64,000 bases of DNA from an uncultured Veillonellaceae bacterium (GTDB lineage: Bacteria; Bacillota; Negativicutes; JARBTT01), in the NCBI GenBank assembly GCA_963805085.1, contig CAWDTA010000002.1, forward strand, positions 928,001 through 992,000, read 5' to 3'. Below are positions 9,923-39,975 of this stretch, piece after piece (within the stretch, counting starts at the first letter, position 1; every line of letters begins with the position of its first letter). A model generated the notes under the pieces. It saw only the letters and a program-made list of their open reading frames with translations. It searched no databases and was not told the origin of the DNA. The position numbers were made by a program, and so were the translations under genes.

Positions 9923-9996
9923 GCGGGCGTAGCTCAATGGTAGAGCGCTTGCTTCCCAAGCAAGACACGAGGGTTCGATTCCCTTCGCCCGCTCCA
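9923..9996 (+). tRNA. tRNA-Gly (anticodon CCC)
   Basis: Acceptor stem GCGGGCG/CGCCCGC, D arm AGCTCAATGGTAGAGC, anticodon arm CTTGC-TTCCCAA-GCAAG, T arm GAGGGTTCGATTCCCTT, encoded CCA. Confidence 0.97.
9949..9996 (+). repeat. attL core (3' part of tRNA-Gly)
   Basis: TTGCTTCCCAAGCAAGACACGAGGGTTCGATTCCCTTCGCCCGCTCCA, 47/48 identical to 39918-39965. Confidence 0.95.
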
Positions 9997-12186: not shown

Positions 12187-12249
12187 AAAAGGTTCCTTTC
12201 GACATGTAAGTAATATTCATGATTTACATTTGTTAGTATAAATGGACTT

Positions 12250-12450: not shown

Positions 12451-12761
12451 ATGTCAATTTTATAAATGCGCCGATATTTCATGAAAATATCAGTGAGAAT
12501 TTAGACTGTAGAGAGGGAAACAGGTAAACGTGATTATGTGAATTTAATTTTAAATATAAACTAACTATCTAGTAAATGATTATATATGAGTATACTACTA
12601 TATATAAGATTGCCAAGGAGCAAAGCCGATTAAGAATAATTAACTATGATTATGTATATAGAATTATAACTACAAGGTAGAGTTTGTATAACAATTTAAA
12701 ATTGTCCTAACAAAATGGTAGATCAAAAAAATGATCTGCCATTTTTATTTAGGAGGAATTT

Positions 12762-13205: not shown

Positions 13206-13695
13206 GGTTAAGAAAGAAAAAAATAAAGATGTAATGCAGTTGTTTCGCAAATTGAATTATATTACGGATTGGTGCTCAACTAGGCAATATTTGATATATG
13301 GGAGTGCAGTTAGTGTCTTGGATGCCTATGAAGAAATGGTAGCAGTTAAAAAGGTATTTGATAAAACAGAACGAAGTGCATTCCGGCATTATGTGTTAAG
13401 CATTGAAGAAAATGAAGCCATTTCTTTAGTAAGCTTTAAGAATCTTGGTATTGAAGTATGTGAGCTGATTTCTAACTTTTATGGGAATTATCAAGTGCTG
13501 ATGGCTGTTCATATAGATACAGGTAATTTGCATATTCATTACGTTGAAAATAGTGTTGATTATTTAACAGGAGAAAGATTTGATCTTAATTGGAGACGGT
13601 TAGAAGAGTTAAAACATCGAATTAGTAAAATACTGCATAAGTATAAATTATCACCTGTAAAAATGAGAGATTTAGCCAATGTAGAAGAATTATGA
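13192..13695 (+). CDS. Short HUH relaxase (MobA/VirD2-like, MOBP type)
   Basis: N-terminal Tyr (KLNYIT), FRHYVLS, HIDTGNLHIH; RBS GAGGAG; only about 167 aa. Confidence 0.85.
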   Translation: MAIFEVKKEKNKDVMQLFRKLNYITDWCSTRQYLIYGSAVSVLDAYEEMVAVKKVFDKTERSAFRHYVLSIEENEAISLVSFKNLGIEVCELISNFYGNYQVLMAVHIDTGNLHIHYVENSVDYLTGERFDLNWRRLEELKHRISKILHKYKLSPVKMRDLANVEEL

Positions 13696-14085: not shown

Positions 14086-15288
14086 ATGGCAGGGTCAATA
14101 CAAGAGTTAGGTAATAATCGATGGGAGCTTAGAATATCTAATGGATATGATTCAAATCATAAGCAAAGAAGAATAACTAAGACGATTCAAGCAACGTCAC
14201 GTAGACAAGCACAGAAAGCTTTGGACGAATTGAACCTTTCTCTTACAAAAAAGTCTAAAGATAGTGGTGATAATAAAATAACTTTTGGGCAGTTTCTTCA
14301 GTTATGGGATAATCGACATAATTCAAAGTTAAGTATAAGTACTAAAATAGGTCATCAGAATTTGTTGGAAAGTAGAATTATCCCCGTTTTTTATGGAATT
14401 AAGCTAAAAAAAATAACGCCTGAATTAATTTTAGATTTTATCAAGATGCTTAGAGAGCCTAAAAGGAATGCAAATACAGGTGGTGAACTCTCGGCAACAA
14501 GTGTTCATGCTCACTATAAACTTATAAATCACATATTGAATAAAGCCGTAGAATGGGGTTATTTAGCAAGTAATCCATGCAATGAAATTCCAAAAGATGA
14601 GCGTCCACGTCCGGCTTATCAACGACTTCCTATATGGAATGAACAAGAATTAAAAAGATTTTTATTACTGTTGAAGGGGTTAAAAGATAGTCCTACAAAG
14701 ATTAAGCAGGAATTGATGTTTTATATTGCTTTGCTTACAGGAGCACGGCGAGGTGAACTAAGTGCATTAACTTGGGATTGTATTAATTATGAGGAAAAAT
14801 CTATTTATATCAATAAAGCAACAAAGTTTGCAGAAGGAACACAACGATCCTTTGATAAACCAAAAACGAAAGAGTCTATAAGAAAATTATATATAGACGA
14901 GCATGTTGTAAATTTATTTAAAAAACACAAAGAGTATCAAGATAAATATTTGAGTAAATATGGTTATAAAAATCCTAAACAGATTGTGTTTTTAGCAGTT
15001 AGAAAATCAGGCAATGAATTAATGCCAATCAGTGCCAGTTGCTTATATACATGGCTTAATAAGTTTAGTAAAGATAATGGATTTAGCCATATAACAGTTC
15101 ATTCTCTACGACACATGGCAGCGACTTATGCTTTGAATTATGGAGCACCGCTGACAGCAGTACAAACCATGCTGGGGCATACAAATATAAGAACAACTTC
15201 TATTTATCTTCATGCTATTGAAGAAAAAAGAAAAGAGGTAGCAGGAGTGTTATCAAATAATTTGCAAATATTGAGGGGAGAAAATTAA
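14086..15288 (+). CDS. int: Tyrosine integrase (ICEBs1/Tn916-like, with N-terminal arm-binding domain)
   Basis: Catalytic residues: GARRGE (R), PKT (K), HSLRH, LGH, TTSIY (Y); MAGSIQ...WELRIS N-terminal domain. Confidence 0.95.
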   Translation: MAGSIQELGNNRWELRISNGYDSNHKQRRITKTIQATSRRQAQKALDELNLSLTKKSKDSGDNKITFGQFLQLWDNRHNSKLSISTKIGHQNLLESRIIPVFYGIKLKKITPELILDFIKMLREPKRNANTGGELSATSVHAHYKLINHILNKAVEWGYLASNPCNEIPKDERPRPAYQRLPIWNEQELKRFLLLLKGLKDSPTKIKQELMFYIALLTGARRGELSALTWDCINYEEKSIYINKATKFAEGTQRSFDKPKTKESIRKLYIDEHVVNLFKKHKEYQDKYLSKYGYKNPKQIVFLAVRKSGNELMPISASCLYTWLNKFSKDNGFSHITVHSLRHMAATYALNYGAPLTAVQTMLGHTNIRTTSIYLHAIEEKRKEVAGVLSNNLQILRGEN

Positions 15289-16592: not shown

Positions 16593-16694
16593 CATAAGGT
16601 TGAGGATGTTTAGAAGTTTAAAATTTTCGAAGTTGATGAATGGATTCGTTCCGGCGGCTTGCCCGATAAGGGTGAATTAAGTTCTGTAGAATAG
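16593..16694 (+). pseudogene. Relic of an excisionase-like HTH regulator upstream of the defence operon
   Basis: Hand translation HKVEDV*KFKIFEVDEWIRSGG; family pattern is HKVGRLWKFKxSEVDEWxRSGG, so the Trp codon appears to have become TAG. Confidence 0.65.
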
Positions 16695-16708
16695 CAAGAA
16701 ACAAGGAG

Positions 16709-18709
16709 GTGATACACATGATGCAACAGTCTAGTAGTGTTGAGAACAAAATGTGCAACATCGAAAGTGCTTCTTCTTTATCCTCTAAGATAAAGGAGTC
16801 TTTTTTTGTATGGTTATCCGATGGATATGCAAAAAAATATCCTCCAGCGCTCTGTTTTGCTTGTATTGATAAAGTTTCTGAGTATCTTATTCGTAGAAAG
16901 ATTTCCTCAGTTAGTTTGTGGGAAACAACAAATTTTGGGATGTTTAAAAGTGTCTACAATAAAGCGATCAACGATAATCTTTTTAAAGCGACCGATAAAA
17001 AGACGCATACTATTTTTGTGCAGGCGGGAAAGATCTTTTTAAAGTTTTTGAAAAGCAAACCTGCCATAATAAAGGCGTCTGCCTCTGTTCTTGAACCGCC
17101 GAGTCAGCCTAGTTCTCGGCTTACAATAAAAGAAGCGATCATCCGCGTATTGGAAATCGAACTACACGGCATGACTGCCAAACAGATTTATAACAAGATT
17201 ATCGTAGATGGATTGTACTCTTTTGGCGCACAGAATCCTCAGAATGTTGTACGGGTAGAAATTGACCGTGCGTGCGTAAACTCCAATTATACCGTTCGTG
17301 CTTCTGAGGATTGTTTCAGGTTTGAAAGAAACCAGAAGGGCGAAAAGGTTTATTTTTTATTACCATCAACTTTGACCGACGATACTACTCAATCCAGCAT
17401 TATTGTCGTTGATAAATCTGTTGAACCAAAACGGGCGAGCAAAAAAACTAACAATATTGAAATCTGGAATGACTCCATTAAACGGAATTTTCAAATTTGG
17501 ATGGAGTCGGAGAGTTATGCACCGCTTACCATAAGAAGCTATTGCAGTGCCGTCAATTGCACTGTTCAAAACTTCAAACTATTAGCGGATGCCGCAGCCA
17601 ATGAATCGTCAACCCTGCCAGAGTCTGTTCACAAATTTGTTTGTCTGCTTAATCAGGGCAGCAGATTTATTACTGACAACAGCATGGCGCATAACCAGTT
17701 TTCTGCCGCATTGGAAGCGTTTGTACGGTTTGTTGGCATAGACATATCAATCCCTGCGGGAACTGCTTTCTCAGCTCAAAGTATGGCAGATTCTGAACTT
17801 GACGATATCATAGACCTCGAAGAAGGAAAAAATGGAATTCGTGAAATTTTGAATGCCCATTTCTTAACACTGGATGGATACAGTAATATAGCTATCCTTT
17901 GGAGTGCGGCGCAAAATTCATTGTCGATGTTCCTTAATGATAACGCAATTAACTCCGCCGATGATTTTGGACGTTTTCTCGTTAGTGCGTTCAAAAATGA
18001 GTTTGCTTTCAGTTTACCGCACATATGGCAGAATGAACCAGACTATCCTCGGAGTTCAAGGGGATTAATTATAAACCTTGCCCGTCAACATGGTGGCGTT
18101 GTCACGAGAAAACAAATTGACGGTTTTTTCTCTCGCGTCAAACTAACGTCATTGTATAACTCGTTTGTGTTGGATAAAGGGCAGTTGCTGTTCTGCGATA
18201 ACGAAAAATTCATACTTACTGAGACTGTAAACCCCTCTTATGAACGCTGTTTACTGATTACCAAAGCGTTGAATGCGTTATTTTCCTGCGAGAATATACC
18301 TTTTATCGTTTTGCGTGATATATATTCGTCGTGGTTTTTCTGTCTTCCTGAGTTGCCTAATGGGATACAGTGGACACCATTGCTGCTGCAAGAATTGCTG
18401 CGTATCTGCCCAGAAATTGGCTATCGCATTATTTCATCAGATTTAAAGGGACAGGCTCTTGATACGGTCGGCGCAGCAATTGTACCAAGCAAATCAGAGA
18501 TAGAAAACTTTGCCGATATTGTCCACCGATTTAGTTATGGAAAATACAAGCTACCATTCAAGCTTTCTGCTGAAGAGTTGCGGCTTGACTTGCGGGAAGC
18601 GGGTATGCTCGATGGGAATGAACTTATATATAACATGCACAAAGCATTAAAAGATTACCGTTTTGCGTTTTCTGATGAGAACCGAACAGTTATGATATTG
18701 GAGCGATAG
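16709..18709 (+). CDS. Multi-domain putative DNA-binding protein (HARE-HTH between two related helical domains), first gene of the BREX-4 operon
   Basis: LTIKEAIIRVL...GMTAKQIYNKII..GLYSFGAQNPQNVV is HARE-HTH-like; 4 nt gap to brxP. Confidence 0.6.
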   Translation: MIHMMQQSSSVENKMCNIESASSLSSKIKESFFVWLSDGYAKKYPPALCFACIDKVSEYLIRRKISSVSLWETTNFGMFKSVYNKAINDNLFKATDKKTHTIFVQAGKIFLKFLKSKPAIIKASASVLEPPSQPSSRLTIKEAIIRVLEIELHGMTAKQIYNKIIVDGLYSFGAQNPQNVVRVEIDRACVNSNYTVRASEDCFRFERNQKGEKVYFLLPSTLTDDTTQSSIIVVDKSVEPKRASKKTNNIEIWNDSIKRNFQIWMESESYAPLTIRSYCSAVNCTVQNFKLLADAAANESSTLPESVHKFVCLLNQGSRFITDNSMAHNQFSAALEAFVRFVGIDISIPAGTAFSAQSMADSELDDIIDLEEGKNGIREILNAHFLTLDGYSNIAILWSAAQNSLSMFLNDNAINSADDFGRFLVSAFKNEFAFSLPHIWQNEPDYPRSSRGLIINLARQHGGVVTRKQIDGFFSRVKLTSLYNSFVLDKGQLLFCDNEKFILTETVNPSYERCLLITKALNALFSCENIPFIVLRDIYSSWFFCLPELPNGIQWTPLLLQELLRICPEIGYRIISSDLKGQALDTVGAAIVPSKSEIENFADIVHRFSYGKYKLPFKLSAEELRLDLREAGMLDGNELIYNMHKALKDYRFAFSDENRTVMILER

Positions 18710-18713
18710 ACCT

Positions 18714-21041
18714 ATGTATGGATATGAATGGACAAAGAAAAACGGAATATATCGACTTGTGCCGAACGCTAAAGTTATCAAGGAAATCCGCCCGGTATTT
18801 AAGGAAGAACTTGACTACTTTGGTCTTGACGCGCAATGGAAATATCCGAATACCGAAGCCCCGCTTCTGTGGGCGGAAGGAATTCGGAGGTATAATCTTA
18901 ATGGTGAGGTTGTCGCTGAAGCCGTTGGTGGCGGTTTTTATACCAAGCCAACTATAAATGTAAAGAAAGAGGGCTTGAAATTGAAGCCCATCAACATTGA
19001 TGCTTTATGGAAAGAGAATGAACGACTTATGCTTGGCCTTGAGAAAACGGCCATCGAGTTCATCCGCAAGGTTCATGGAGATTATGTCAAGCGCGGTATG
19101 AATTTTGTTGTGGCGTTTTCCGGAGGGAAAGACAGTCTCGTGCTACTTGACCTCGTGGCAAAGGCGCTGCGTCCGGATGAGTTTGTCGTTATTTTTAGCA
19201 ATACAGGCATGGAACTGAATGCAACCATTAAAACCGTAGAGCGTGCCAAAGTCCACTGGAGTAAGTTGCATTTCTATGAAGCCGGAAGCCATATGACGCC
19301 AGATGAAACGTGGAATGCGTTCGGCCCTCCCGGACGCCGACTTCGTTGGTGCTGCTCTGTACACAAATCAGTACCCACTATTCTTAAGCTCCGAGAAATC
19401 ACCGGAGACTATGATGCCAAGGCCGTGGTGTTTGACGGCGTACGCAAAGAAGAAAGTGCCGCCCGAGCAATGTACGATGCTATTGGAGAGGGCGTTAAAA
19501 ATATAAATCAGGTTAATGCCAGCCCAATTTTAGATTGGGGAACCAATGAGGTTTATTTACATCTTTTAAAGAACAGCATATTATTCAATGATGCCTACAG
19601 GATCGGATTATTTCGAGTTGGTTGTAAAGTTTGCCCTATGTCATCTGGCTGGTGGGACGGCATAGCGAACGATGCCTACAAAGGCGAACTTGAAAGTTTG
19701 TTTCGTAAAGTTGAGGATTACGCAAAAAATACGAAGGCTAAAAAAGAACAAAAAAGATACATAGAAGACGGTGGCTGGAAAGGAAGAATGGGCGGTCGTG
19801 GCTTGGATGCAGGAGGCAACCGAGTAACTGAAGTGATCGATGGAGACAAAATAGTATTTCATTTTTCTAAGAGAACGGAGAATTGGTTAGAAGTTTGCAA
19901 GATATTGGGAAAAGTTGTTGAAAAAAATGGTGAAACGTATACGCAGATTATTAATCATCAAAGCTACCAATTTACATTGACGCCCGTTACCGTGACGTAC
20001 TACCCCTATTCAAAAATGGATAGGTTTGTGATCAGTCATCTGCGCGGTGTAGCGAATAAGGTTGCCTATTGCGTCGGGTGTAAGGCATGTGTTGTTCAAT
20101 GTCCTAATGGTGCGTTTGAGATAACCGATGAAAGTAAAATTTTAATCCGTGAAAATAGGTGTACACACTGTGTAAATTGCATTGAGTTCACTGGTACAAA
20201 GGGATGTTTAGCGGCTAAATCACTTTATACGACTGGAGGATATGGTATGAATTTAAAAGGAATGAATCGCTATCAGCATTTTGGTTTTCGCCGTCCATGG
20301 TTAGAGCATTTCTTTGAATATGGCTCAGAGTGCTTTACAATGGGGCAGCTTGGCAATCGCCAATATGACGCACTTCGTGTATGGCTTCGCGAGGCAGAAC
20401 TGCTAACACCTGCAAGTAAGGGGGAAAAATCAGGGACGCCCACCGAACTGTGTGAGCAACTTTGTTCATTGAGTGCAGGCAATCCTTTGGTGTGGGCAAT
20501 AATATGGACGAACCTTGCCTACAACTCCGTCATCACGAAATGGTATATGCTCTACGCCGAGGCTGGAGAAACCTACGACAAAGCAGAACTTGTATTCATG
20601 CTTGGAGACGACTATTCGCCGTCCACACGAGACAACGCAGTGACTGCACTTCTCGAAACGCTCCGACACAGCCCGATCGGTGCCGTGCTGAAACAAGGTA
20701 TACCCATCCCGGACGGTGTAAGTTTTAAATTTGTCAAACAAGGGTGGGACGCGCCTGAAGCGGTAGCTATACTTTATGCACTATACAAGTTTGCTGAAGA
20801 AACCGGGCGCTATACTTTCACTCTCACTGGACTTGCTAACACTCGTACAAATGCGGAGGCAAAAGGCGTTGACCCTGTATTGATATTTGGCTTGAATCCG
20901 AATAATTTCAAGGCAATCGTACAAAATGTCGCTCTTCAATATCCCGAATATATCCGAGTGGCGTTCGTACAAGACCTCGATAACATTATTCTTGTGCCTG
21001 AGAAAAAAGCTATTGATGTACTAAAACTGATTACAGAGTAA
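18714..21041 (+). CDS. brxP: BrxP-like protein: PAPS reductase + 4Fe-4S ferredoxin + DUF4007 (SspD/SspB-like fusion)
   Basis: PP-loop SGGKDS, RWCC, GVRKEES, RVGCKVCP; CVGCKACVVQCP and CTHCVNC; C-terminal RYQHFGFRRPWL. Confidence 0.85.
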   Translation: MYGYEWTKKNGIYRLVPNAKVIKEIRPVFKEELDYFGLDAQWKYPNTEAPLLWAEGIRRYNLNGEVVAEAVGGGFYTKPTINVKKEGLKLKPINIDALWKENERLMLGLEKTAIEFIRKVHGDYVKRGMNFVVAFSGGKDSLVLLDLVAKALRPDEFVVIFSNTGMELNATIKTVERAKVHWSKLHFYEAGSHMTPDETWNAFGPPGRRLRWCCSVHKSVPTILKLREITGDYDAKAVVFDGVRKEESAARAMYDAIGEGVKNINQVNASPILDWGTNEVYLHLLKNSILFNDAYRIGLFRVGCKVCPMSSGWWDGIANDAYKGELESLFRKVEDYAKNTKAKKEQKRYIEDGGWKGRMGGRGLDAGGNRVTEVIDGDKIVFHFSKRTENWLEVCKILGKVVEKNGETYTQIINHQSYQFTLTPVTVTYYPYSKMDRFVISHLRGVANKVAYCVGCKACVVQCPNGAFEITDESKILIRENRCTHCVNCIEFTGTKGCLAAKSLYTTGGYGMNLKGMNRYQHFGFRRPWLEHFFEYGSECFTMGQLGNRQYDALRVWLREAELLTPASKGEKSGTPTELCEQLCSLSAGNPLVWAIIWTNLAYNSVITKWYMLYAEAGETYDKAELVFMLGDDYSPSTRDNAVTALLETLRHSPIGAVLKQGIPIPDGVSFKFVKQGWDAPEAVAILYALYKFAEETGRYTFTLTGLANTRTNAEAKGVDPVLIFGLNPNNFKAIVQNVALQYPEYIRVAFVQDLDNIILVPEKKAIDVLKLITE

Positions 21042-21056
21042 AGGGGGATCACAGTC

Positions 21057-24000
21057 ATGAAGTACAGCAACTATATTGAGCTTTCTGCAAATTATGAATC
21101 TGTTGTGGATCTGGATGCGGATGAGCGCCGCCCGAATCTCTGGCAGGAGTACATTGTCCAGGAGGATATGAAAAAGGCGATTGATGCGGTATGCCAAACC
21201 ATCAACTGGGAAGACAACGACAAACGCCGTTCTTTCTGGATTCATGGTGCTTATGGCACGGGTAAAAGCTATGCTGCCATTGTATTGAAGCATCTGTTTG
21301 AGGACAAGGTTACTAATATTGATGCATTTTTGAACAAGCCGTCACTTGCGGCATACAAGAAGCGGTTTCTTAAACTCCGTCAAAAAGGTGAATATCTTGT
21401 CGTATGGAAAAGTGGTGTTACGGGTATATCCGGTGACCCCGATGTAAAAAGCAGCGTTCAGCTAATGATGACGATGGAAGTCAAAATCAAAGAGAAACTG
21501 AAAGAAAAATTCGGTGACAAGGCATATTACGGTATAAATTCACTTATATCTTCTGCTAAAGACGTAATAAATGACAAGTTTATTAACTGGATTGAGATTT
21601 TTAATAGCCCGCTATACGATTTAGCTGATATTTATTCTGACTTTGAAAAATTTCGTCAGGTGGTTATGAGTGGCGACATTCAAGCCATAGATAAGGTAAG
21701 AAAAATTTGTAATGACCGTAATATCGCATTATTTTCGGATACCGTTGAAAAGTTCGAAACCTGGTTGAAAGACATAATTGCAGGCAACGGACTGAAAGAT
21801 ACCGGTATCGTCTTTATCTGGGATGAATTTACAGGCTTTCTGCGTGACTGTGGTGATGACAATGTACTTCAACGACTGTCTGAGTTTTGCAAACAACCTA
21901 ATTCACCATTTTTTATGTGTCTGATCGTCCATCGTGACCCGACATGGGTAGATCAGCTTGGTGGCGAAACGTATGAACGCATTTTACACCGTTACCATGA
22001 ATTGGAGTTCCATATTACCGAAAGCGCAGCCTATGATCTTATTGGCGATTCTATCATCCCACGTTCCGGCATGGAGTCGCAGTGGGAGGACACCAAGAAA
22101 GGATTGCTCAAATCCATCGAAAAATACAAGAGTGAGTTTGATAATCTTGACCAAAGCATTAACATCAACGAGCGTATGTCAAAGCTCTGCCCTCTACACC
22201 CCATGACACTGTCTTTACTTGCTACAGTTGCACAGCATTTTGGAGCCTCTCAGCGCACGTTATTTCGTTTTATGAAAGACAGAGCTGAATCCTCGCAGGG
22301 AGTAGGATTTATTAATTACATAGAGAATAATGATCCTGATAAATGGGGATGGCTTACAGCTGATTATCTTTGGGATTATTTCTTTACGCGCGGGAGTGAT
22401 GTGCGCAATTTTAATGCGGATGCGCGCAAAGTAATACAACACTTTCAAAATAAGCAAGACTCTATTTCCGATGAATATGCAATGCATGTTTTTAAGGCAG
22501 CCCTGCTCCTTATTGCTATGATGAGTGGTAGTAGTGTCAGTAATCTTTACAGTCGCCAAAACAATGTTGGAACCAGAATCGGCGCGACCAAAAACATTTT
22601 GTATAAGTGTTTCCGGGGGCAGCTTGAACAATCAACAATTGATACCTATTTGCAATCATTTGAGGAAATAGGTCTTCTTCGTCTTGACAAGCAAGCCAAT
22701 GGAGATGCTCGTTTGGAATTTCCTTATGTAGGCGGTGGAGATCCCTTTGATATTCGGCTTAAAACGACCAAAAAGTGTCATACACGTTACAGCCTCTTTT
22801 CAAAAAACGGTGTATTCTCCAAGGCGCTTGAAGGTAGTCTGTGGGACAGCACAAAGGCTACCTTCGGTAGAATGTTTATTGTAGTATGCTCATCAGAGAC
22901 AAATTCCATAAACACGCGCCTTGGTGAAGTGAAAAACGAACTTGCGAAGGCGCCATGGAAAATAGGACTTCTTGTTGTCAGCATATCTGACACAAGTGAT
23001 TATGTTACGTTTCAAACCAAAGTAAAGCAAATTGCCGCTGAAGACGATACGAAAAGGCTTGTTGTCGCATTAATAAAGGAACCGTGTACGAATGATTTGC
23101 TTGATCAGTGGTGTACGGCTATAACGCATAAAGAATTATCAGCTGAAGATGGGAAACCCGGCAGCGCAAGCAACTATGAAGCACAAGCGGCCGCGCATGT
23201 GGCGCAGTGGGCTACGGTGGCTTCAAACGGACAGATTTTTGCTTGCTATGGTGATATGCAATTTTCATCGCTTTATGGACAAAGCGACTTAGTCAAGCGG
23301 GTCGAAAATGATGTGCTGTTCAGTGTATTCTCCGCCGCTCCTGAGCGGATTGTTACAAGCAATACTGCATTTAAAAAGTGCAACGACAGTGCTGTTCTTG
23401 CCGGGATCAAAAAAACAGTCAGCAATAATCAGGTTAACAACATTTCTAACGCTCTCAAAGAAATAGGTGCATGGGACATCGACGATTTAGAAACGCTTAA
23501 GAATTTATCCGGTTCGAAGGCGGTCGCAGTCACTGAGGTTGCAAAATTTATCCAACGGGAGCTCTCCTATGGTGCAAAAATATCGATAGATACTTTATGG
23601 GCAAATCTGCAACAGGCACCTTTCGGATATTACAATTCTTTGGCTGTAGGTTGCTTTATCGGTCTGACTTTGCGATCATTTGTTAATGCTTCATTTAATT
23701 GGATTGACAGTAACAATAACACACATTTGCCGACTGCTGAAAACTTGGCAAGTATGGTCAACAAAATGTTGGACGGCAAAACACTGAACAACTTTCTTTC
23801 GTCCGGCTCAGCTATATGGCAAAAATTTAGACCTTATGCAAAAGCCGTGTTTGGGCTTTCGGATAGGGACAGTGTGAGTGAAACCGAAACGCGTAAATAT
23901 ATACGTGCTAAGATACAAGGAATAGGTGTACCCTTTTGGACAATGAAGTACCTACCGAGTGAAAAGTTCGGAGGCGATGATATAAAAGATACCGCAGTCA

Positions 24001-25271
24001 AACTTACAGATCTTTTCTGTGATTTTATTTACGAGACTTCATCTGATCAGGATAACGTGATGGCAGAAGTGCTGACACTCTTCAATGGACGCGGTGGTTT
24101 GCGCAAAACTATGGCGGATATGCTCAACGATAAGCCTATTATGTATGATGCGTTCAAGCGGTTCATATATACTCAAGCCCCTGAGATTGAGAAACTTTGT
24201 GAGAAGCTGAATTATACCGACAAGGATTTGTTTGATGCCTTGCGTAGATACTTGCAAGATGCGATTTCTACATGGCGCGAAGAGCAGGTATCCTCAAAGC
24301 TCGCTGAGCTGGCGGAAGAACTCGATGTGATTGTAACGTTGAGCATGGCTCTTGGCGTTGATAGAAAGACCTATGCTTCTCTTCAAAGAGAATTGAAAAA
24401 CGTTTTTGATAATATGAAGATACCTGGAACGGTGATAGAAATGCTGGCTTTTAGTTGGGTTCCAACATTGAAAATTATGCGGAGTCTTTCTAATAATCCA
24501 TGGACAGATATTGCCGACAAAATAAATGTCAAAGAAAAACTGGGGGACAGTGCAAAAACAGCTTGGGACTATTTGTCTCAACCGAAACTTATTCTTGAAG
24601 CAGTATTGCAGGAACAGAATATCAGCTTTAGTGATGCAGAGCTAAGTGAAATTTATATGTCACTAAAACCCTTCGTGTATGAAACACCAAACACTGTTTT
24701 CAAATCCACACTTGATAGGTTGCTTGAAAATATTTCTTATAATCGAAATGCCGCATTGCTCCAACAACTTTGGAATGAAAAGAGCGGTACTGTAACGGTT
24801 TGTGAATGGTGTAATAATGCAAATGTTCCAATCGCTTGGGTGGTTGATGGTTTGATTTTATCTGCCATTCAAACTATCAAAGCGATACAGGACAGAAGGA
24901 AAGTCAATAATGATATTTTGCAAAGTGCGGTGAGCGTCCTAAAGAGTAATAACCTCGCCGTCCTTAAAGACAGTAAGCATATATCCGACCGCTTTTTTGC
25001 TTACATCGGTGAAAATTATCGCGATGCCTTTCTCACAGACAGGGATGTTCTGTTAGGGAGAATTAAAACAAATGCCAAGATTTCATCTGATGTGTATACG
25101 TGGGCAAACAAAGTTCCGGAAATTCGTGACATCCTTGATATGTACCTTCAAAAGACTTATAAAGAACAAGCGAAGACTCGTGTAAAATCAATGCCAGATA
25201 CAGAACTCCGTGAAGCTGTGATTCATCTGCTTGATAAAAACCCTGAGTTATACAGTAGCTTTTTGAAGTAG
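21057..25271 (+). CDS. brxC: BrxC/SspC-like large P-loop ATPase
   Basis: Walker A GAYGTGKS, Walker B FIWDEF, PLHP and QRTLFRF motifs; 1404 aa; lies between brxP and pglZ. Confidence 0.85.
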   Translation: MKYSNYIELSANYESVVDLDADERRPNLWQEYIVQEDMKKAIDAVCQTINWEDNDKRRSFWIHGAYGTGKSYAAIVLKHLFEDKVTNIDAFLNKPSLAAYKKRFLKLRQKGEYLVVWKSGVTGISGDPDVKSSVQLMMTMEVKIKEKLKEKFGDKAYYGINSLISSAKDVINDKFINWIEIFNSPLYDLADIYSDFEKFRQVVMSGDIQAIDKVRKICNDRNIALFSDTVEKFETWLKDIIAGNGLKDTGIVFIWDEFTGFLRDCGDDNVLQRLSEFCKQPNSPFFMCLIVHRDPTWVDQLGGETYERILHRYHELEFHITESAAYDLIGDSIIPRSGMESQWEDTKKGLLKSIEKYKSEFDNLDQSININERMSKLCPLHPMTLSLLATVAQHFGASQRTLFRFMKDRAESSQGVGFINYIENNDPDKWGWLTADYLWDYFFTRGSDVRNFNADARKVIQHFQNKQDSISDEYAMHVFKAALLLIAMMSGSSVSNLYSRQNNVGTRIGATKNILYKCFRGQLEQSTIDTYLQSFEEIGLLRLDKQANGDARLEFPYVGGGDPFDIRLKTTKKCHTRYSLFSKNGVFSKALEGSLWDSTKATFGRMFIVVCSSETNSINTRLGEVKNELAKAPWKIGLLVVSISDTSDYVTFQTKVKQIAAEDDTKRLVVALIKEPCTNDLLDQWCTAITHKELSAEDGKPGSASNYEAQAAAHVAQWATVASNGQIFACYGDMQFSSLYGQSDLVKRVENDVLFSVFSAAPERIVTSNTAFKKCNDSAVLAGIKKTVSNNQVNNISNALKEIGAWDIDDLETLKNLSGSKAVAVTEVAKFIQRELSYGAKISIDTLWANLQQAPFGYYNSLAVGCFIGLTLRSFVNASFNWIDSNNNTHLPTAENLASMVNKMLDGKTLNNFLSSGSAIWQKFRPYAKAVFGLSDRDSVSETETRKYIRAKIQGIGVPFWTMKYLPSEKFGGDDIKDTAVKLTDLFCDFIYETSSDQDNVMAEVLTLFNGRGGLRKTMADMLNDKPIMYDAFKRFIYTQAPEIEKLCEKLNYTDKDLFDALRRYLQDAISTWREEQVSSKLAELAEELDVIVTLSMALGVDRKTYASLQRELKNVFDNMKIPGTVIEMLAFSWVPTLKIMRSLSNNPWTDIADKINVKEKLGDSAKTAWDYLSQPKLILEAVLQEQNISFSDAELSEIYMSLKPFVYETPNTVFKSTLDRLLENISYNRNAALLQQLWNEKSGTVTVCEWCNNANVPIAWVVDGLILSAIQTIKAIQDRRKVNNDILQSAVSVLKSNNLAVLKDSKHISDRFFAYIGENYRDAFLTDRDVLLGRIKTNAKISSDVYTWANKVPEIRDILDMYLQKTYKEQAKTRVKSMPDTELREAVIHLLDKNPELYSSFLK

Positions 25272-25283
25272 GGGGAATGCCCA

Positions 25284-27386
25284 GTGACCATACAAGAGAT
25301 TTTAGATAAAGTTGTTGCCGAGCGACAGACGCCTGGTCGTTTTCCGTCGAGGCTGATATTCGTTCGCAATTTTTCGGATTACAGTTTGCTTGTTGACGAA
25401 CTCAGTAAAATTTGTGATGTTACACTGAATCTCGCTTTATTTGCCCAGGGAGATATTTTACCGGATTTCAACGCAGTAAAGCAGGAATTGAGAAAAAATG
25501 TAAATAAACGAATTCTTCTGCTCTCGCTTAACGAATACCTGCGTTTGTGCGCAAAAAGAGAAACTGCCAAAGAAACATCTGTTTTTTCTGGAATATGGGA
25601 AAACATACAATCGGAAAGGGCAACAACAAAATACATCATACCACTTTTCGGTGGAAGAGAATTATTTGACCAAGTCGTGCCTATCGTAGATGAACGTCAA
25701 GAGGACTTTCTCTGGGATTTGACGGGTTCATCAGAGCCTTTGGAGTATACGGTAAGTGTATATTCCCCTGCGTTTACCACGGCGGTCAAGACTGATGCCA
25801 CCAATTTTCAAGAGTGGCTCGAAAATTGGGATACGCTTTTTTCTGACGACAACCGAAAACACTTCTCTTTGACATCGAAACTTATTAAATATACCAATCC
25901 GATGACGGGGCCTGTTTCGGTTAAGATTATAGATGAACCTTTTGCATATGTGACTTCACTTGTTAGCGATGGACAAAAACTGAAGCGAGAGTGGGGTGAT
26001 GAGCAATTTTGGACTGATGTTGCTAAGCATGTCAAGCAAGGAAAAAGCTTCTCAGCGACAGTGAAGGCTATTCTCAACATGGGTGCAAACTTTGATCCTT
26101 TTGCTGTCCTTGCAAGATTTGACCATTTGTCGAGTACCGAACGTAGCTTATTATGGGTATGGTATAGACTTTATCCGACTGATGATTACTATTCATTTGC
26201 TATTGGTCAAGCAATCTACCCAGACGAGATACCAACTAAGCTCCGAGATGCTATATTTGAATTACCTAAGACAGTGGATTCCACTCATGCTGAGCGCGTG
26301 AAGGCATTAAAGGTTCTCAATGTTCAATACGGACATGAATACTTTTCCAAACTAGACAAAGTCCTACCTGCTCAAACGCGGATGTCATACTTGACTTATA
26401 AGACATTGCAAGAACGCGCTTATGCAGTAAAAACGGTGAGTGGTCTTTTGAGGAATGGTGCAGATGTTCATGCAATCGCCGAACAATTAGGTAGTGACTA
26501 TCCGAGTTTAGCGGAATATTTATTGCCTTCGGATGTGAGAGATGACGAAGTTGCACGTTATTTTAACTGGTATCGTCAAAGTAAAATTCTGAACCGATTG
26601 CCGGAGGACTGGCCAAATCACATAGACTTCGACAGTCTAGATAGTCGTAATAAAATTCTACAACAAAGCGGCGATACGCTGACTTTTTGGGTGGATGGCT
26701 TGGGTGCCGAATGGCTTCCGCTGTTAGTCAAGAATTTGAAGCAGCTTAATATTGCGGAAACGATTAATTCGAATATCGGTCGCGCAATTCTCCCGAGTGA
26801 AACGGAGTACAACCACAAATGGAAAGACAACGATGAAAAATGGGACAGATTTGATAAGCTCTCTCATAACGGCATGCCCGATGATAAGGATTACTTTTTG
26901 TGTGTTGCACGCCAAATAGAGATCATTGGAGAAGTGGTTGAGCGGGTATCTGAGTTACTGACTCAGCACGATAGTATCATAATAACAGGCGACCATGGTA
27001 GCAGCCGACTTGCTGCCTTGATGTTCCATGCTTCTGATAACTTTGCAATTGATCCTCCGAAGAATTCAATTGTCCGTTCTTTCGGCAGATTTTGTGAATT
27101 AAACGGAAGTGCAGATGTAATCATTACCCCTTCTATGGAGAAGATAGTTCTGGAAGGTCAAAAATATATCGTGATGAAAACGTACGAGCATTTCAGACAG
27201 TCCGGCAATGCTGCAGGTGGTAACACAGAGGATAAGGCGGTAGCGGGCGAAGTCCACGGCGGTATGACACCGGAAGAATATCTTGTGCCTGTTATTATGG
27301 TCACGCGTAAAATTTCATTTAAGAAGTCGATTCAAGTCAAAGTGCAAAAGTCAAAAGCCGCAGAGCTTAACGATATGGGGATATAA
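25284..27386 (+). CDS. pglZ: PglZ (BREX type 4 alkaline-phosphatase-fold protein)
   Basis: WVDGLG, LPSETE, ITGDHG, HGGMTPEEYLVP. Confidence 0.9.
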   Translation: MTIQEILDKVVAERQTPGRFPSRLIFVRNFSDYSLLVDELSKICDVTLNLALFAQGDILPDFNAVKQELRKNVNKRILLLSLNEYLRLCAKRETAKETSVFSGIWENIQSERATTKYIIPLFGGRELFDQVVPIVDERQEDFLWDLTGSSEPLEYTVSVYSPAFTTAVKTDATNFQEWLENWDTLFSDDNRKHFSLTSKLIKYTNPMTGPVSVKIIDEPFAYVTSLVSDGQKLKREWGDEQFWTDVAKHVKQGKSFSATVKAILNMGANFDPFAVLARFDHLSSTERSLLWVWYRLYPTDDYYSFAIGQAIYPDEIPTKLRDAIFELPKTVDSTHAERVKALKVLNVQYGHEYFSKLDKVLPAQTRMSYLTYKTLQERAYAVKTVSGLLRNGADVHAIAEQLGSDYPSLAEYLLPSDVRDDEVARYFNWYRQSKILNRLPEDWPNHIDFDSLDSRNKILQQSGDTLTFWVDGLGAEWLPLLVKNLKQLNIAETINSNIGRAILPSETEYNHKWKDNDEKWDRFDKLSHNGMPDDKDYFLCVARQIEIIGEVVERVSELLTQHDSIIITGDHGSSRLAALMFHASDNFAIDPPKNSIVRSFGRFCELNGSADVIITPSMEKIVLEGQKYIVMKTYEHFRQSGNAAGGNTEDKAVAGEVHGGMTPEEYLVPVIMVTRKISFKKSIQVKVQKSKAAELNDMGI

Positions 27387-27389
27387 CTA

Positions 27390-27590
27390 ATGGCTAATAA
27401 AAAGATGTGTATTGAATGTAGTGTTTTGCTGAAGAAAGACGAGGTGGCATTATCTCAAAAAATGCTTGGGCGCGTTATAACGGAGTTTTACTGTATAGAC
27501 TGCCTTGCTGAAACCCTCGATTGCGATCCGGATGACTTGGTTGTTAAGATACAAGAATTTAAAGAGCAGGGTTGTACATTATTTTTGTAG
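27390..27590 (+). CDS. 66-aa zinc-ribbon protein inside the BREX operon
   Basis: CIEC...YCIDC plus terminal GCTLF; 3 nt after pglZ; its stop overlaps the brxL RBS. Confidence 0.75.
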   Translation: MANKKMCIECSVLLKKDEVALSQKMLGRVITEFYCIDCLAETLDCDPDDLVVKIQEFKEQGCTLFL

Positions 27591-27601
27591 GAGGTGCGAG
27601 G

Positions 27602-29044
27602 ATGGATAAACTAAGAGAGGCATTTGCTGAAATGGTCGTTCTGAAAAATCCAGAACGAACTAAGTTCTTTGCTGACCTCAGCCTGCCTTCATATATGCGG
27701 GACTGGCTTGTTATGAAGTTTTCTGATGAGCTTGGTAATATTGACTATGATGGTGTAACACGTTACATCAAGCAATATATCCCAAATCGCGAGGATTACG
27801 AACAATTTAAGTTTCAAATGGTTAATGGAGAAAGCGTTCGCTTCCTTGCCCGCATTCGCGTTGGCATTGATATAAAAACAGGTAAAACGACATTCGAACT
27901 CCCGGATTTTGGAGGCACGAAAACAGGTGCTGGTGGTGAGGTATCAAACGACGTTATCAACCGCTGGCAAGATACTCTTTTGAGAGAAACTGAAAATTGG
28001 GGCATCATTGATCTCGTCTGGGAACAGGATTACTCAAAAAAGCCGCCGAGGGGTTATATAAAAATTATTGGTTATCAGCCATTCTGTCCATACAATGTTG
28101 ATTTGGAGTATTACCGTGAAGCCCGCCGGAAATTTACAACTCAGGAATGGCTTGACATTCTTATTTCAGCTGTCGATTATAATCCTCACGGTTATGAAAC
28201 AGAAGAACAAAAATTATACTTTATCCGTAGACTTCTCCCGTTCGTGGAACGTCGTGTCAACCTCATTGAGCTTGCTCCTATGGGAACCGGTAAGAGTTAT
28301 GTGTACGAAAAGATAAGCAAACGTGGCTGGCTCGTGTCGAGTGGCACAATTTCGCGTGCCTCGCTTCTCTATGACAATAACAAACGCACAGGCGGTTTAA
28401 TTACTCAATTCGACTATGTTGCGTTTGACGAAATACAATCTTTGAAATTTGAACAGCCACAGCAGATACAGGCCGCTCTCAAAAGTTATATGGAGTTCGG
28501 TGAGGTCAAGGGCTTTGACACACAAATAATCGCAGATGCAGGAATTATCATTTTGGGTAATATTAATGCGAAAAAATTTAACCCCGAAATCAATATGGTT
28601 GATGAGATCAACCCAATATTTAGAGAGGCAGCGATCCTTGACCGTTTTCACGGCTTCATACCCGGTTGGGAAATTCCTCGCTTTCATACGGGAATTATCG
28701 CTGATGGTTGGGCGTTGAATACGGAATATTTTGCCGAAGTCTTACATGACTTGCGTGATGAACTCAAGTTTTCAGCTTTGGTAGATTCATGCTTGGATGT
28801 ACCCCGAAAGTCTGATAAGCGTGACCTTACGGCAATATCCCGTTTGTGTACTGGTTTTGTAAAATTGCTGTTTCCACATGCTGAAACGAAATCTGATATA
28901 GAGTCGGATGAATTTATTAAATATTGTCTCGAACCAGCTAAAGAAATGAGGGCAATAATCAAGAAACAGCTATGTGTAATTGCCCCGCAGGAATTCGATT
29001 TGCCGGGTAAGCGAGATATTCCAAATATACAATACAAGTATTAA
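27602..29044 (+). CDS. brxL: BrxL-like AAA+ (MCM-related) protein without a C-terminal Lon protease domain
   Basis: NLIELAPMGTGKS, VAFDE, AILDRFHGFIPGWEIP, KLLFP; 480 aa from the ATG after AGGAGG. Confidence 0.88.
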   Translation: MDKLREAFAEMVVLKNPERTKFFADLSLPSYMRDWLVMKFSDELGNIDYDGVTRYIKQYIPNREDYEQFKFQMVNGESVRFLARIRVGIDIKTGKTTFELPDFGGTKTGAGGEVSNDVINRWQDTLLRETENWGIIDLVWEQDYSKKPPRGYIKIIGYQPFCPYNVDLEYYREARRKFTTQEWLDILISAVDYNPHGYETEEQKLYFIRRLLPFVERRVNLIELAPMGTGKSYVYEKISKRGWLVSSGTISRASLLYDNNKRTGGLITQFDYVAFDEIQSLKFEQPQQIQAALKSYMEFGEVKGFDTQIIADAGIIILGNINAKKFNPEINMVDEINPIFREAAILDRFHGFIPGWEIPRFHTGIIADGWALNTEYFAEVLHDLRDELKFSALVDSCLDVPRKSDKRDLTAISRLCTGFVKLLFPHAETKSDIESDEFIKYCLEPAKEMRAIIKKQLCVIAPQEFDLPGKRDIPNIQYKY

Positions 29045-29210: not shown

Positions 29211-29234
29211 AGAACTTGGCAATTGCCAAGTTCT
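29211..29234. terminator. Perfect 24-bp palindrome between convergent genes
   Basis: AGAACTTGGCAATTGCCAAGTTCT followed by TTGTTT. Confidence 0.65.
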
Positions 29235-29693: not shown

Positions 29694-29865
29694 GATAAAT
29701 CGCCTCCTATCGTTTTTTACCTTTATGTTACATTTTCTTTGATTAAAGGCGATTCCTTTCATAAGATAAACTTAAATTTTTCACTTATATATTATAACTA
29801 TGAATACTTACAAACTTGTGGCTATACCACAAAGTCCTTGCAAAGGAACATAGGAACATACATAA

Positions 29866-29902
29866 AGGCACTAGCTTAGACGGCTAGTGCCAATTTTATT
29901 TT
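29866..29902 (+). repeat. Hairpin repeat A, copy 1
   Basis: AGGCACTAGCTtagacGGCTAGTGCCAATTTTATTTT; 34/37 identical to 33471-33507. Confidence 0.85.
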
Positions 29903-29917
29903 GAGGAGGAAAATACT

Positions 29918-30898: not shown

Positions 30899-32578
30899 AT
30901 GAACCAAAGGATTGTTTTACTCGTTTTAGGATGTTTGGTAAGTATGCTTTTAATAAGTGGATGTTCTTCAAACGTTTTCGGTGACAGTGGTGAATTACAG
31001 GCTGGCTATTATAAGCAGATGATTATGCAACCTAATGGTAATTTTATTGGTAAAGACAAAGTAGATGATAAAAAAGCTGCTTCAAGTGGCTTGGTTTATA
31101 AGGTCGAAATGAATGAGCAGAAAAAATTATCTAAAATAACAGCGATGTATAATGAACAACCATTTGATCAAGAATGGTTTGATACAAAACATACTTGTTA
31201 TGGTAATTTTGCCGCGGTTGCAATGGAATATCAAGATGGATATGTAAAGTATAATTTTAAGAATGCCCGTATGCAGCCGACTACAGGATACTATGGTTCT
31301 TATTCATTACGATATAAGCTGGATGACAAGAAAGTTCCTACAATCGCTTATTGTTACAATAAAGATGGTGAGCAAGCGGAAAATGGCAATGGTTTTGCTC
31401 AGATGATTTTTACATATGACGATAAGGGCATTTTAACTAAAGTTGGATATGCCAATAGCAGTGGTGAACGTGTAACAACCAAATGGAAAGACTACGAAAC
31501 ACAGCTTAAATATAATAAAGATAGTAAGAAAAATAGCCTGCCAATAGAAGTATCCAATCATGGAAAAGATGGCGAATTGATGCTGGATTCTATGAATATT
31601 GCAAAGCGTGTATACAAATATGATGACAAAGATAGACTGCTTGAAATCAGGCACTTTGGTACAGATGGGAATTTAAGAGAAAGAGTACTTGATAAATTTC
31701 ACATGAACCGAATGCTTGGCGGAATTGGTGCAGGTGCTATTACAAAGTACAAATATGAAGGTGAGCAGAAACTGCCAAATGAAGTTTCTTTTTATGGAAA
31801 GGATGAACAGCCTGTAGGTGTGCAAGCATTAGATAATGCAGCCTCTATAAAGTTCAAAAGTGATAATTCAGGAATTGTTATGGAAATCAGTTTCTTTGGT
31901 ACGGATGGTTTACCGAGAGCTCTAGACGAGAAAACTTTCGGAAAAGATGTAGTTACTATGAAAATTAAGTTGGATGACTTTGGTAACAAAATTGAAACAG
32001 CAATTTATAACAAAGACGGAAATTTAACTGTAATAAAAGGGACAAAAGCTGCTATAGAAAGAGATAAATATGATGATAAACGTCAGCAAATAGAAGAAAA
32101 TTATTTTGGAACAAGTGAAGAACCTGTTGAAATTACAGATAAAGGATATACGTTTCATAAAAAAGCAATGGAATACAATGATGATGGAAAATTAACAAAA
32201 ACGACTTATTATGATAAGAACGATAAAGAGATCAATGGCACGGCACCTAGTTCCAATAATTTAGGAATGACAAGATTTTATGGACGATGGTATATGGATG
32301 GTCCAAGTATGGCTGAGTCTGGGCATATTATTATCAATGATAGAGAAGTTATTCGTGTTCCTTTGCACGATGTAGCTCGAATTCCCCAAAATACATGGAG
32401 CCGAAATAGTTATACGGTAAGTTCTGTAAATATTAATCCAACTACGGGACAAGGTTATGCTATTTTAAGATTTAATGATGGTTCGATGAATCAATTTACT
32501 CTCAATTCAGCAAATTCAATGACTTGGGATAAAGCTAAATATACTTGGAATAAACAATCAAATAGCACAATTTATTAA
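30899..32578 (+). CDS. Lipoprotein with YD/RHS-like beta-hairpin repeats and a distinct C-terminal domain
   Basis: Lipobox LISGC; repeated YxYDxxG...Y/FxxDG units; non-repetitive last ~110 aa. Confidence 0.7.
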   Translation: MNQRIVLLVLGCLVSMLLISGCSSNVFGDSGELQAGYYKQMIMQPNGNFIGKDKVDDKKAASSGLVYKVEMNEQKKLSKITAMYNEQPFDQEWFDTKHTCYGNFAAVAMEYQDGYVKYNFKNARMQPTTGYYGSYSLRYKLDDKKVPTIAYCYNKDGEQAENGNGFAQMIFTYDDKGILTKVGYANSSGERVTTKWKDYETQLKYNKDSKKNSLPIEVSNHGKDGELMLDSMNIAKRVYKYDDKDRLLEIRHFGTDGNLRERVLDKFHMNRMLGGIGAGAITKYKYEGEQKLPNEVSFYGKDEQPVGVQALDNAASIKFKSDNSGIVMEISFFGTDGLPRALDEKTFGKDVVTMKIKLDDFGNKIETAIYNKDGNLTVIKGTKAAIERDKYDDKRQQIEENYFGTSEEPVEITDKGYTFHKKAMEYNDDGKLTKTTYYDKNDKEINGTAPSSNNLGMTRFYGRWYMDGPSMAESGHIIINDREVIRVPLHDVARIPQNTWSRNSYTVSSVNINPTTGQGYAILRFNDGSMNQFTLNSANSMTWDKAKYTWNKQSNSTIY

Positions 32579-33436: not shown

Positions 33437-33470
33437 AATAAGTTTAATAAAAATTTTATAGTACATATAG

Positions 33471-39917: not shown

Positions 39918-39965
39918 TTGCTTCCCAAGCAAGACGCGAGGGTTCGATTCCCTTCGCCCGCTCCA
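39918..39965 (+). repeat. attR core (displaced tRNA-Gly 3' fragment)
   Basis: TTGCTTCCCAAGCAAGACGCGAGGGTTCGATTCCCTTCGCCCGCTCCA; lacks the D arm and 5' acceptor strand. Confidence 0.95.
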
Positions 39966-39975
39966 TAGAAACAAC

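Follow-up and report, generated by a model that had tools for sequence, protein, structure and literature searches.

A type 4 BREX operon on a tRNA-Gly island of an uncultured Veillonellaceae bacterium, and two unnamed protein families that accompany its kind

The DNA analysed here, referred to below as the window, is a 64,000-nucleotide (nt) stretch of contig CAWDTA010000002.1 from an uncultured Veillonellaceae bacterium. It carries a six-gene operon in which the four core genes of the type 4 bacteriophage exclusion (BREX) system are accompanied by two further genes, one at the head of the operon and one between pglZ and brxL. All six open reading frames (ORFs) lie on the + strand, and every frame is open and full length. 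The starts given are the likely ones, as judged from the upstream ribosome-binding sites.

16718..18709, + strand: upstream multi-winged-helix protein, 663 amino acids (aa); the ORF opens at GTG 16709 (666 aa)
18714..21041, + strand: BrxP, 775 aa, ATP pyrophosphatase of the PAPS-reductase type
21057..25271, + strand: BrxC, 1404 aa, P-loop ATPase, SspC-like
25284..27386, + strand: type 4 PglZ, 700 aa, DUF7863 within its N-terminal half
27390..27590, + strand: 66-aa Cys4 zinc-ribbon / three-helix protein (Zn66), from the translation
27602..29044, + strand: short BrxL, 480 aa; the ORF runs from TTG 27572 (490 aa)
29211..29234, + strand: terminator-like hairpin with a 10-bp stem followed by a T-rich tail, from a pattern scan (consensus match only)

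With the likely starts, the intergenic gaps in gene order are 4, 15, 12, 3 and 11 nt, in agreement with a preliminary description of this DNA that reported six co-oriented genes with gaps of 3-15 nt. The start of the region given there, position 16593, falls in a non-coding leader, outside any gene. The likely start of the upstream gene is ATG 16718, which is preceded by AAGGAGG, and that of brxL is ATG 27602, with GGAGG upstream. The terminator-like hairpin sits 167 nt past the brxL stop codon and, judged by its sequence, likely marks the end of the operon. The G+C content of the operon was 41-43%, compared to 30-35% in the flanks.

BrxP was matched by the PADLOC model PDLC02510 with 768.2 bits over residues 1-773 of 775. 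Pfam reported PAPS_reduct (1.5e-25) and Fer4 families, with a 4Fe-4S ferredoxin-like cysteine cluster, so that two of the three domains proposed earlier for this protein were recovered. The third, DUF4007, was not reported by Pfam at E <= 0.01, although PDLC02510 does span the C-terminal third of the protein, the region equated with DUF4007 in the literature. More than 100 database proteins share 67-90% identity with the BrxP of the window. BrxC was matched by PDLC02475 (229 bits, residues 3-909) and by SspC models with E values as low as 6.7e-24. The NCBIfam BrxC model, which was presumably built for other BREX types, reached 33.7 bits against a cut-off of 400. PglZ was identified by NCBIfam NF033445 (BREX_PglZ_4; 281.4 bits, cut-off 140), by the PADLOC PglZ model and by Pfam DUF7863, and BrxL by TIGR02688 (409.7 bits, cut-off 329.3) and PDLC02505 (606 bits). 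The Pfam domains of BrxL were BrxL_N and BrxL_ATPase, an N-terminal domain and an AAA+ ATPase; no Lon protease domain was reported by Pfam. Among the six proteins, no methyltransferase family was found by Pfam, PADLOC or NCBIfam, and no cysteine desulfurase family was present. The operon thus has BrxP in place of the PglX methyltransferase, a BrxC/PglY ATPase, PglZ-4 and BrxL, the full set by which type 4 BREX is recognised. In these respects the earlier reading of the region as a type 4 BREX operon, with a 1404-aa ATPase, a PglZ, a BrxL-like AAA+ protein and neither a DNA methyltransferase nor a cysteine desulfurase, is borne out, as is the 66-aa zinc ribbon, the translation of which contains the CxxC...CxxC pattern.

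The operon is a further copy of a known anti-phage system, the sulfur-marking chemistry of which has already been shown elsewhere. Two papers are drawn on here as far as their available text goes. PMC12914056 treats BrxP as a fusion of SspD and SspB, and BrxC as homologous to SspC. DNA phosphorothioation (PT) was lost in Bacteroides salyersiae when brxC was deleted, and PT was made in B. thetaiotaomicron, which has SufS, by brxP, mcrA and brxC; PT does not require brxZ, brxL, mcrA or an unknown gene after brxL, which is named Bs02795 in the Results and Bs02796 in the Methods. The set brxPCZL is given as defining, a non-essential "brxR regulator" is mentioned, and the Discussion leaves the site choice and the phage arrest of type 4 BREX open. 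Section 34 of PMC12839542 surveys type 4 BREX in 457 taxa and describes five components; a cysteine desulfurase, present in 56% of the taxa, is proposed as a "sixth core component", and one sentence is given to a small zinc-finger protein that "often co-occurs" with the desulfurase. The upstream multi-winged-helix protein is not mentioned in the available text of PMC12839542, the figures or supplements of which may show it. A literature search, which does not reach figures and supplements, found no further papers on type 4 BREX components.

The B. salyersiae operon has the same four core genes in the same order, and the window, too, lacks PglX (PMC12914056, available text). It differs in having an mcrA-type gene between brxP and brxC, which is absent from the window, and the window copy lacks a linked cysteine desulfurase. 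The window host also differs from B. salyersiae in being a low-G+C member of a class with Bacillota as its nearest named relatives. The small zinc-finger protein and the extra PglZ N-terminal domain of the type 4 BREX described in PMC12839542 (available text) are both also found in the window, the latter as DUF7863.

Two other sulfur-based systems were considered. The Ssp system (SspABCD with SspE) was rejected: the N-terminal module of BrxP resembles SspD (PADLOC, 6e-5) and BrxC resembles SspC (6.7e-24), but these matches are weak and fall far below the Brx models (768 and 229 bits), no match to SspB or SspE was found by PADLOC among the six operon proteins and ten island neighbours, and the window has PglZ and BrxL instead of an SspE-type PT-sensing nuclease. 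The parallel drawn earlier between BrxP/BrxC and SspD+SspB/SspC nevertheless holds at the level of these weak profile matches, and it is stated in PMC12914056 (available text). The Dnd system was likewise rejected, as the DndC models matched BrxP only at 1e-8 to 2e-7, TIGR03183 reached 26 bits against a cut-off of 290, and no DndD or DndE match was found alongside.

The distribution of the two extra genes was surveyed in two samples. An alignment of 12 BrxP proteins yielded 539 BrxP-encoding stretches in species-representative genomes, of which the best 80 were used. These loci (L numbers) were fetched with up to 10 kb per side, scanned by tblastn with the six window proteins, and their ORFs called and labelled by phmmer; their BrxP is 35-83% identical to that of the window. 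The second sample consisted of 401 genomes (G numbers) of the class to which the window belongs, analysed by profile searches, in which related genomes are not independent. Of the 56 loci that contain a complete BrxL and extend 300 nt or more past it, 51 have the gene for Zn66, and the C-terminal domain of the upstream protein was encoded just upstream of brxP in 62 of the 73 loci with at least 1200 nt upstream (jackhmmer). Both genes were found on both sides of the split where BrxP is only 35-45% identical to that of the window. We read the region as an intact type 4 BREX system on a tRNA-Gly island of about 30 kb, in which the two extra genes are regular parts of the system, with a probability of roughly 0.85.

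The upstream protein was modelled with AlphaFold2 (AF2), with a mean predicted local distance difference test score (pLDDT) of 86.8. The model contains helical domains at residues 17-119 and 250-340, a HARE-HTH winged helix at 134-215 and, at 358-663, a C-terminal domain built from some four winged helices in tandem. It shows no enzyme fold, whether of a nuclease or of another kind. The protein had been described as a 666-aa HARE-HTH protein. The ORF stands, with 663 aa as the likely length, while the HARE-HTH assignment is borderline, with PF05066 at 23.7 bits against a gathering score of 25.9; approximately 41 of 103 homologues have a precomputed PF05066 match. In a VIA comparison, residues 133-216 aligned with the globular domain of histone H5 (Z 9.6, root-mean-square deviation 2.1, 72 residues aligned). 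Foldseek returned nothing for the 663-aa model at E <= 0.001, the best rows being the tandem winged-helix proteins UFL1, Vps25 and SelB (E >= 1.1e-3), and the wide VIA search was swamped by the HARE-HTH winged helix, so that the C-terminal domain was barely tested. There was no PADLOC or NCBIfam match and no PDB sequence match at E <= 1, and PHROGs gave noise only. The C-terminal domain was also compared by hhalign with a BrxP profile that includes the DUF4007 region; at a probability of 3%, it is not a recognisable copy of DUF4007. All 103 database homologues are unnamed or "hypothetical", and many share contigs with close relatives of BrxP.

Only the C-terminal ~300 residues of the upstream protein are widely conserved. 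Its counterparts span 321-1176 aa and diverge fast, the L001 copy being 49% identical where BrxP is 83% identical. The N-terminal DNA-binding modules change from one lineage to another: Pfam analysis of 49 upstream proteins found Sigma70_r4 in 14, RNA_pol_A_CTD in 12 (best E 1.3e-42) and HARE-HTH in 5. In the class sample, the profile of the C-terminal domain matched 23 of the 401 genomes. Of these, 21 carry BrxP, with each match within 300 nt of brxP. The match in G108 was marginal, and G264, a candidate for the domain without BrxP, was set aside as uninformative, its match ending 644 nt from a contig end. These features, together with the model, indicate a fast-evolving, non-enzymatic multi-winged-helix protein that is predicted to bind DNA. 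Its conserved C-terminal domain probably docks on the system, and DNA recognition or sensing, or operon regulation, is its most likely service.

The layout recalls PglW of type 2 BREX, in which an alpha-CTD-like helical domain is followed by several winged helices (PMC12839542 section 23, available text): 12 of the 49 upstream proteins have an alpha-CTD and then the tandem winged-helix C-terminal domain. In contrast to PglW, the upstream protein lacks a kinase, a nuclease and an iSTAND module, and the window copy has HARE-HTH, not alpha-CTD. The likeness, taken from the description of PglW, is a resemblance of layout only.

Several loci have a further gene of ~221-243 aa between the upstream protein and brxP (L018, L030, L031, L033, L041, L042, L046, L047, L070, L071 and L076). 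The L070 copy gave a weak HNH match (E 0.003), which recalls the mcrA of B. salyersiae; the L031 copy had no Pfam match. In a separate clade (L055-L061, L063, L069 and L075), BrxP is split, its DUF4007-like part being a separate gene of ~234-263 aa. The upstream C-terminal domain protein is absent from this clade, and L055, L061, L063, L069 and L075 also lack Zn66. Several of these split-BrxP loci have a gene of ~209-227 aa before brxP, and the L057 copy matches sigma-70 region 1.1 at 6e-9.

The upstream protein could be a mere autoregulator of the operon, comparable to BrxR and with no part in marking or exclusion. Its gene heads the operon, and the protein consists of helix-turn-helix (HTH)-type and helical domains only. 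Described BrxR proteins carry a WYL domain behind an N-terminal winged HTH. A WYL domain was reported neither in the 663-aa protein (Pfam, E <= 0.01) nor among the eight families found in the 49 upstream proteins, and by the WYL definition the protein is not a BrxR-type regulator, as Pfam gives HARE-HTH only. The proteins of the family, 321-1176 aa long and with at least four winged helices, also exceed the usual size of regulators by far. The C-terminal domain is conserved while classical DNA-binding modules are swapped, which fits a docking domain with variable recognition heads, and the 4-nt gap to brxP suggests coupled translation. The non-essential "brxR regulator" included in type 4 sets in the available text of PMC12914056 would, if it is this gene, speak for autoregulation. 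On balance we regard autoregulation alone as possible but on the unlikely side.

The second extra protein, Zn66, is the more uniform of the two. In 32 of the 51 loci its gene has the same place as in the window, between pglZ and brxL, and in the other 19 it comes directly after brxL; the five loci without it (L055, L061, L063, L069 and L075) all belong to the split-BrxP clade. The 46 other copies aligned are 44-80% identical to that of the window, while BrxC and PglZ of the same loci fall as low as 21-25%. In the 47-sequence alignment C7, C10, C35, C38, C62, L64 and F65 are invariant, and the C-terminal EFKEQGCxLF is nearly invariant across loci in which the upstream regions and the other proteins have diverged. 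In the class sample, the BrxP profile matched 42 of the 401 genomes: 27 with full-length matches (E <= 1e-220), one with a partial match at a contig end (G088), and 14 with matches to the N-terminal module only. The Zn66 profile matched 28 genomes, which are exactly the 27 full-length-BrxP genomes and G088; it had no match in the 14 N-module-only genomes or in the remaining 359.

Those 14 genomes (G046, G069, G072, G134, G142, G146, G214, G223, G232, G294, G298, G309, G345 and G349) have open frames of mostly ~570-610 aa, with three of 880-928 aa, and several have stops inside the match. One complete genome (G191, C1:936335-962217) has ~25 kb between Zn66 and brxP, where 8-10 kb is usual; this points to a rearrangement of the locus or to DNA inserted within the operon.

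Searches of Pfam, PADLOC and NCBIfam assigned Zn66 to no family. Its AF2 model (pLDDT 86.7) has two cysteine knuckles and helices at residues 16-26, 36-43 and 47-60; C62 sits on a short tail at the C-terminus. No solved fold matched the model, the best Foldseek E value being 0.95 and the best VIA Z score 3.6, and the ESM Atlas returned unnamed clusters only for Zn66 and for the upstream protein. By this model, Zn66 is a putative zinc-stapled three-helix module with an invariant C-terminal G-C-x-L-F. A search of 1.84 billion cluster representatives with the Zn66 profile returned 719 proteins at E <= 0.001, which are mostly stand-alone proteins of 63-75 aa. A predicted complex of Zn66 with BrxL (both alignments) scored 0.00 in two runs without controls, which counts neither for nor against binding.

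Among the exceptions is a protein of 574 aa (P0315) that joins the N-terminal module of BrxP (positions 1-535 of PDLC02510, 525 bits) to a C-terminal zinc domain. The 90% cluster to which it belongs comprises 268 members, of which the 15 listed all have 574 aa. The loci of these fusions lack BrxC, PglZ and BrxL and carry genes for a phage helicase, exonuclease, endolysin, tail protein and spanin. A search of IMG/VR with P0315 found 19 loci, of which 14 keep the fusion, with identities of 44-94%, and six show two such genes in tandem; the fusion adjoins the endolysin gene, often as two tandem paralogues. The phage fusions of 574-578 aa are located as follows.

L096:10001-11725: BrxP-N/Zn66 fusion
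L097:10001-11737 and 11744-13351: two BrxP-N/Zn66 fusion genes, with a Zn66-like stretch up to 13532 in addition
L174-L184 and L187-L189: BrxP-N/Zn66 fusions

Two other proteins (P0269, 209 aa; P0318, 238 aa) join the zinc domain to a RuvX resolvase-like domain and a NusG/KOW protein, respectively. One further protein (P0242, 585 aa) combines it with the N-terminal half of PglZ, in a one-member cluster on 3 contigs. Neither P0242 nor P0315 is a BrxL fusion.

The fusion to the N-terminal module of BrxP is the main reason why we place Zn66 on the BrxP side, where our best guess is a small DNA- or protein-binding adaptor or a hand-over point for sulfur. We give less weight to a role as a cofactor of BrxL or as a simple repressor. 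In the latter case, Zn66 would be a zinc-stapled HTH repressor that regulates transcription of the operon. This would be in keeping with a weak PHROG match to a "transcriptional repressor" family (E 0.0017), with the three-helix model and with weak Foldseek rows that are HTH regulators, all at E >= 0.95. These fold matches are, however, below significance, and the gene lies in the middle or at the end of the operon, never at its head. A near-invariant sequence across differing upstream regions would be unusual for an operator-binding repressor, and phages without the operon carry Zn66 joined to the BrxP N-module. We consider the repressor role unlikely.

Zn66 could instead be a sulfur relay, in which the invariant Cys62 on the tail would pass a persulfide from a cysteine desulfurase to BrxP. 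C62 is invariant in addition to the four zinc-type cysteines, all 37 loci with a linked desulfurase have Zn66 as well, Zn66 directly precedes the desulfurase in one gene order, and it is fused to a PAPS-reductase / Fe-S module. Against this stand the reconstruction of PT in B. thetaiotaomicron with brxP, mcrA and brxC only, and the finding that the gene after brxL, which may be the Zn66 homologue, is dispensable for PT in B. salyersiae (both PMC12914056, available text). Furthermore, 11 loci and the window have Zn66 without a linked desulfurase, and no similarity to known sulfur carriers was found. The relay is in our judgement doubtful. If the dispensable gene is Zn66, this would point to a role of Zn66 beyond PT synthesis as such.

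Several points weigh against our reading of the region and of its two extra proteins. Neither extra gene is universal, since the split-BrxP clade lacks the upstream C-terminal domain and five of its members also lack Zn66; the 11 loci without the C-terminal domain are the ten members of that clade and L038. In the class sample, 7 of the 28 BrxP-carrying genomes had no match to this domain, which may be a limit of sensitivity, because the scores in related genera reach only E ~1e-8. G234 has two BrxP matches and one Zn66 match. If the B. salyersiae gene after brxL is a Zn66 homologue, Zn66 is dispensable for PT; this, and likewise the sufficiency of brxP, mcrA and brxC in B. thetaiotaomicron, disfavours an essential sulfur-relay role. 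The RuvX and NusG/KOW fusions could mean that the zinc domain in the phage fusions is merely a general nucleic-acid-binding module. Neither accessory protein has a characterised relative, and the roles proposed for them are guesses. For PT marking and phage exclusion in the window organism, we infer both from homologues.

The copy in the window is distinguished by the absence of a desulfurase gene. In most of the related loci, a gene of ~375-400 aa comes next and encodes a class-V aminotransferase (Pfam 8.7e-81 for the L002 copy), which was scored by phmmer with this one protein. In the 52 loci that reach 1500 nt or more past brxL, the combinations were the following.

Zn66 present, desulfurase present: 37 of 52 loci
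Zn66 present, desulfurase absent: 11 of 52 loci
Zn66 absent, desulfurase present: 0 of 52 loci
Zn66 absent, desulfurase absent: 4 of 52 loci

From these counts, Zn66 is commoner than the desulfurase and is kept without it, as it is in the window, whereas PMC12839542 (available text) links the zinc finger to the desulfurase. A tblastn search of the whole window with a BREX-4-linked desulfurase found no such gene or remnant (best E = 0.49). As none is present in the window, the sulfur would come from a desulfurase encoded elsewhere, and three full-length Aminotran_5 matches were found elsewhere in the genome (E 8e-151, 1e-85 and 2e-84), in line with the earlier proposal that sulfur is drawn from a host desulfurase.

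The lack of a desulfurase gene or remnant after brxL, set against the 37 of 52 related loci that have one, could alternatively mean that the operon is a decaying remnant that lost its activity with the linked gene. We consider this very unlikely, as all six frames are intact and full length against the profiles, 11 other loci likewise lack the desulfurase, the host SufS was enough in the published reconstruction (PMC12914056, available text), and the genome has several class-V aminotransferase genes.

That the two extra genes set apart a distinct six-gene subtype, as the preliminary description proposed, is more improbable still: PADLOC has no model for either protein and the set brxPCZL in PMC12914056 (available text) has four genes, but the survey finds each gene to be standard in type 4 BREX loci (Zn66 in 51 of 56, the upstream family in 62 of 73) with BrxP 35-83% identical to that of the window, Zn66 follows BrxP one to one in the class sample, and the window departs from the majority by missing the desulfurase, which is present in 37 of 52 loci. 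What the preliminary description claimed as new biology is also weakened, because PT synthesis by brxP and brxC is already experimental (PMC12914056, available text) and a small zinc finger has been mentioned in print; its main point has been overtaken by two 2026 papers. As to whether the extra genes are already in published type 4 models, the 66-aa gene is so in part (PMC12839542, available text), while the upstream protein is not, in the readable text. The preliminary description is thus partly supported, being right on the system and the sulfur source and wrong on the subtype.

By analogy with the homologous systems, BrxP and the SspC-like BrxC would insert phosphorothioate sulfur into the host DNA. 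The sulfur would be supplied by a housekeeping cysteine desulfurase, because the window copy lacks one linked to the system. PglZ and the short BrxL would then act on unmarked incoming DNA and bring about its exclusion. At a guess, Zn66 may act with the N-module of BrxP as an adaptor or hand-over point, and the upstream protein may dock through its conserved domain while its variable heads read DNA or a DNA-bound partner, or it may regulate the operon.

The operon lies between a tRNA-Gly gene and a partial repeat of it, and the island so delimited has the following features.

9923..9996, + strand: tRNA-Gly(CCC), left border of the island (ARAGORN)
13183-13695: relaxase fragment, between the tRNA-Gly and its repeat
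14086..15288, + strand: tyrosine integrase of the island (Pfam Phage_integrase 1.5e-24, with SAM-like N-terminal domains)
39918..39965, + strand: direct repeat of the 3' part of the tRNA-Gly, right border of the island (repeat search)

The repeat of the 3' part of the tRNA-Gly, at 39918-40015, lies 29,969 nt downstream and is 84% identical over 98 nt, the first ~48 nt being nearly identical. Together with the integrase, the relaxase fragment and the G+C contrast, it supports the mobile island described earlier. Within the ten further island genes, no other known defence system was found by PADLOC, with one marginal LeoC match (E 5.9e-4). One of the island genes (35253-36428, + strand) encodes a protein of 391 aa that combines an AAA_16 / STAND-like ATPase domain with a LuxR/GerE-type HTH at its C-terminus and had no PADLOC match. 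Three others, at 30899-32578 (+ strand, 559 aa), 10147-11268 (- strand, 373 aa) and 11458-12186 (- strand, 242 aa), had no Pfam or PADLOC family. A 50-nt hairpin-containing, terminator-like element (GGCACTAGC...GCTAGTGCC) occurs inside the island at 29862-29911 and again at 33467-33516; the two copies are 86% identical and 3.6 kb apart.

The operon itself is one more example of a system with chemistry already shown. What is new is that two protein families without a name are firmly, and in numbers, tied to type 4 BREX; no family name or solved relative was found for Zn66 or for the upstream protein. The published four-gene models of the system (PADLOC, brxPCZL) omit two proteins that accompany it in most of the genomes sampled, and one of these, Zn66, follows BrxP one to one in the class sample. 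Also new is the phage protein in which a small zinc domain is joined to the BrxP N-module. A joint reading, which we put forward as a long shot, is that Zn66 is an obligate partner of the sulfur-insertion module of BrxP, that phages have captured this pair as one fused protein, often in tandem, and that the upstream protein is the recognition subunit. If this were true, Zn66 would dock or hand over at the PAPS-reductase / Fe-S part of BrxP, and the swapped heads of the upstream protein (HARE-HTH, alpha-CTD, sigma region 4) would set DNA or RNA-polymerase-linked targets. Phages, for their part, would phosphorothioate their own DNA to pass as "self", or would jam the type 4 BREX of the host. The phage fusion by itself hints at counter-defence or self-marking, and it may be a device by which phages mark their own DNA or act against type 4 BREX.

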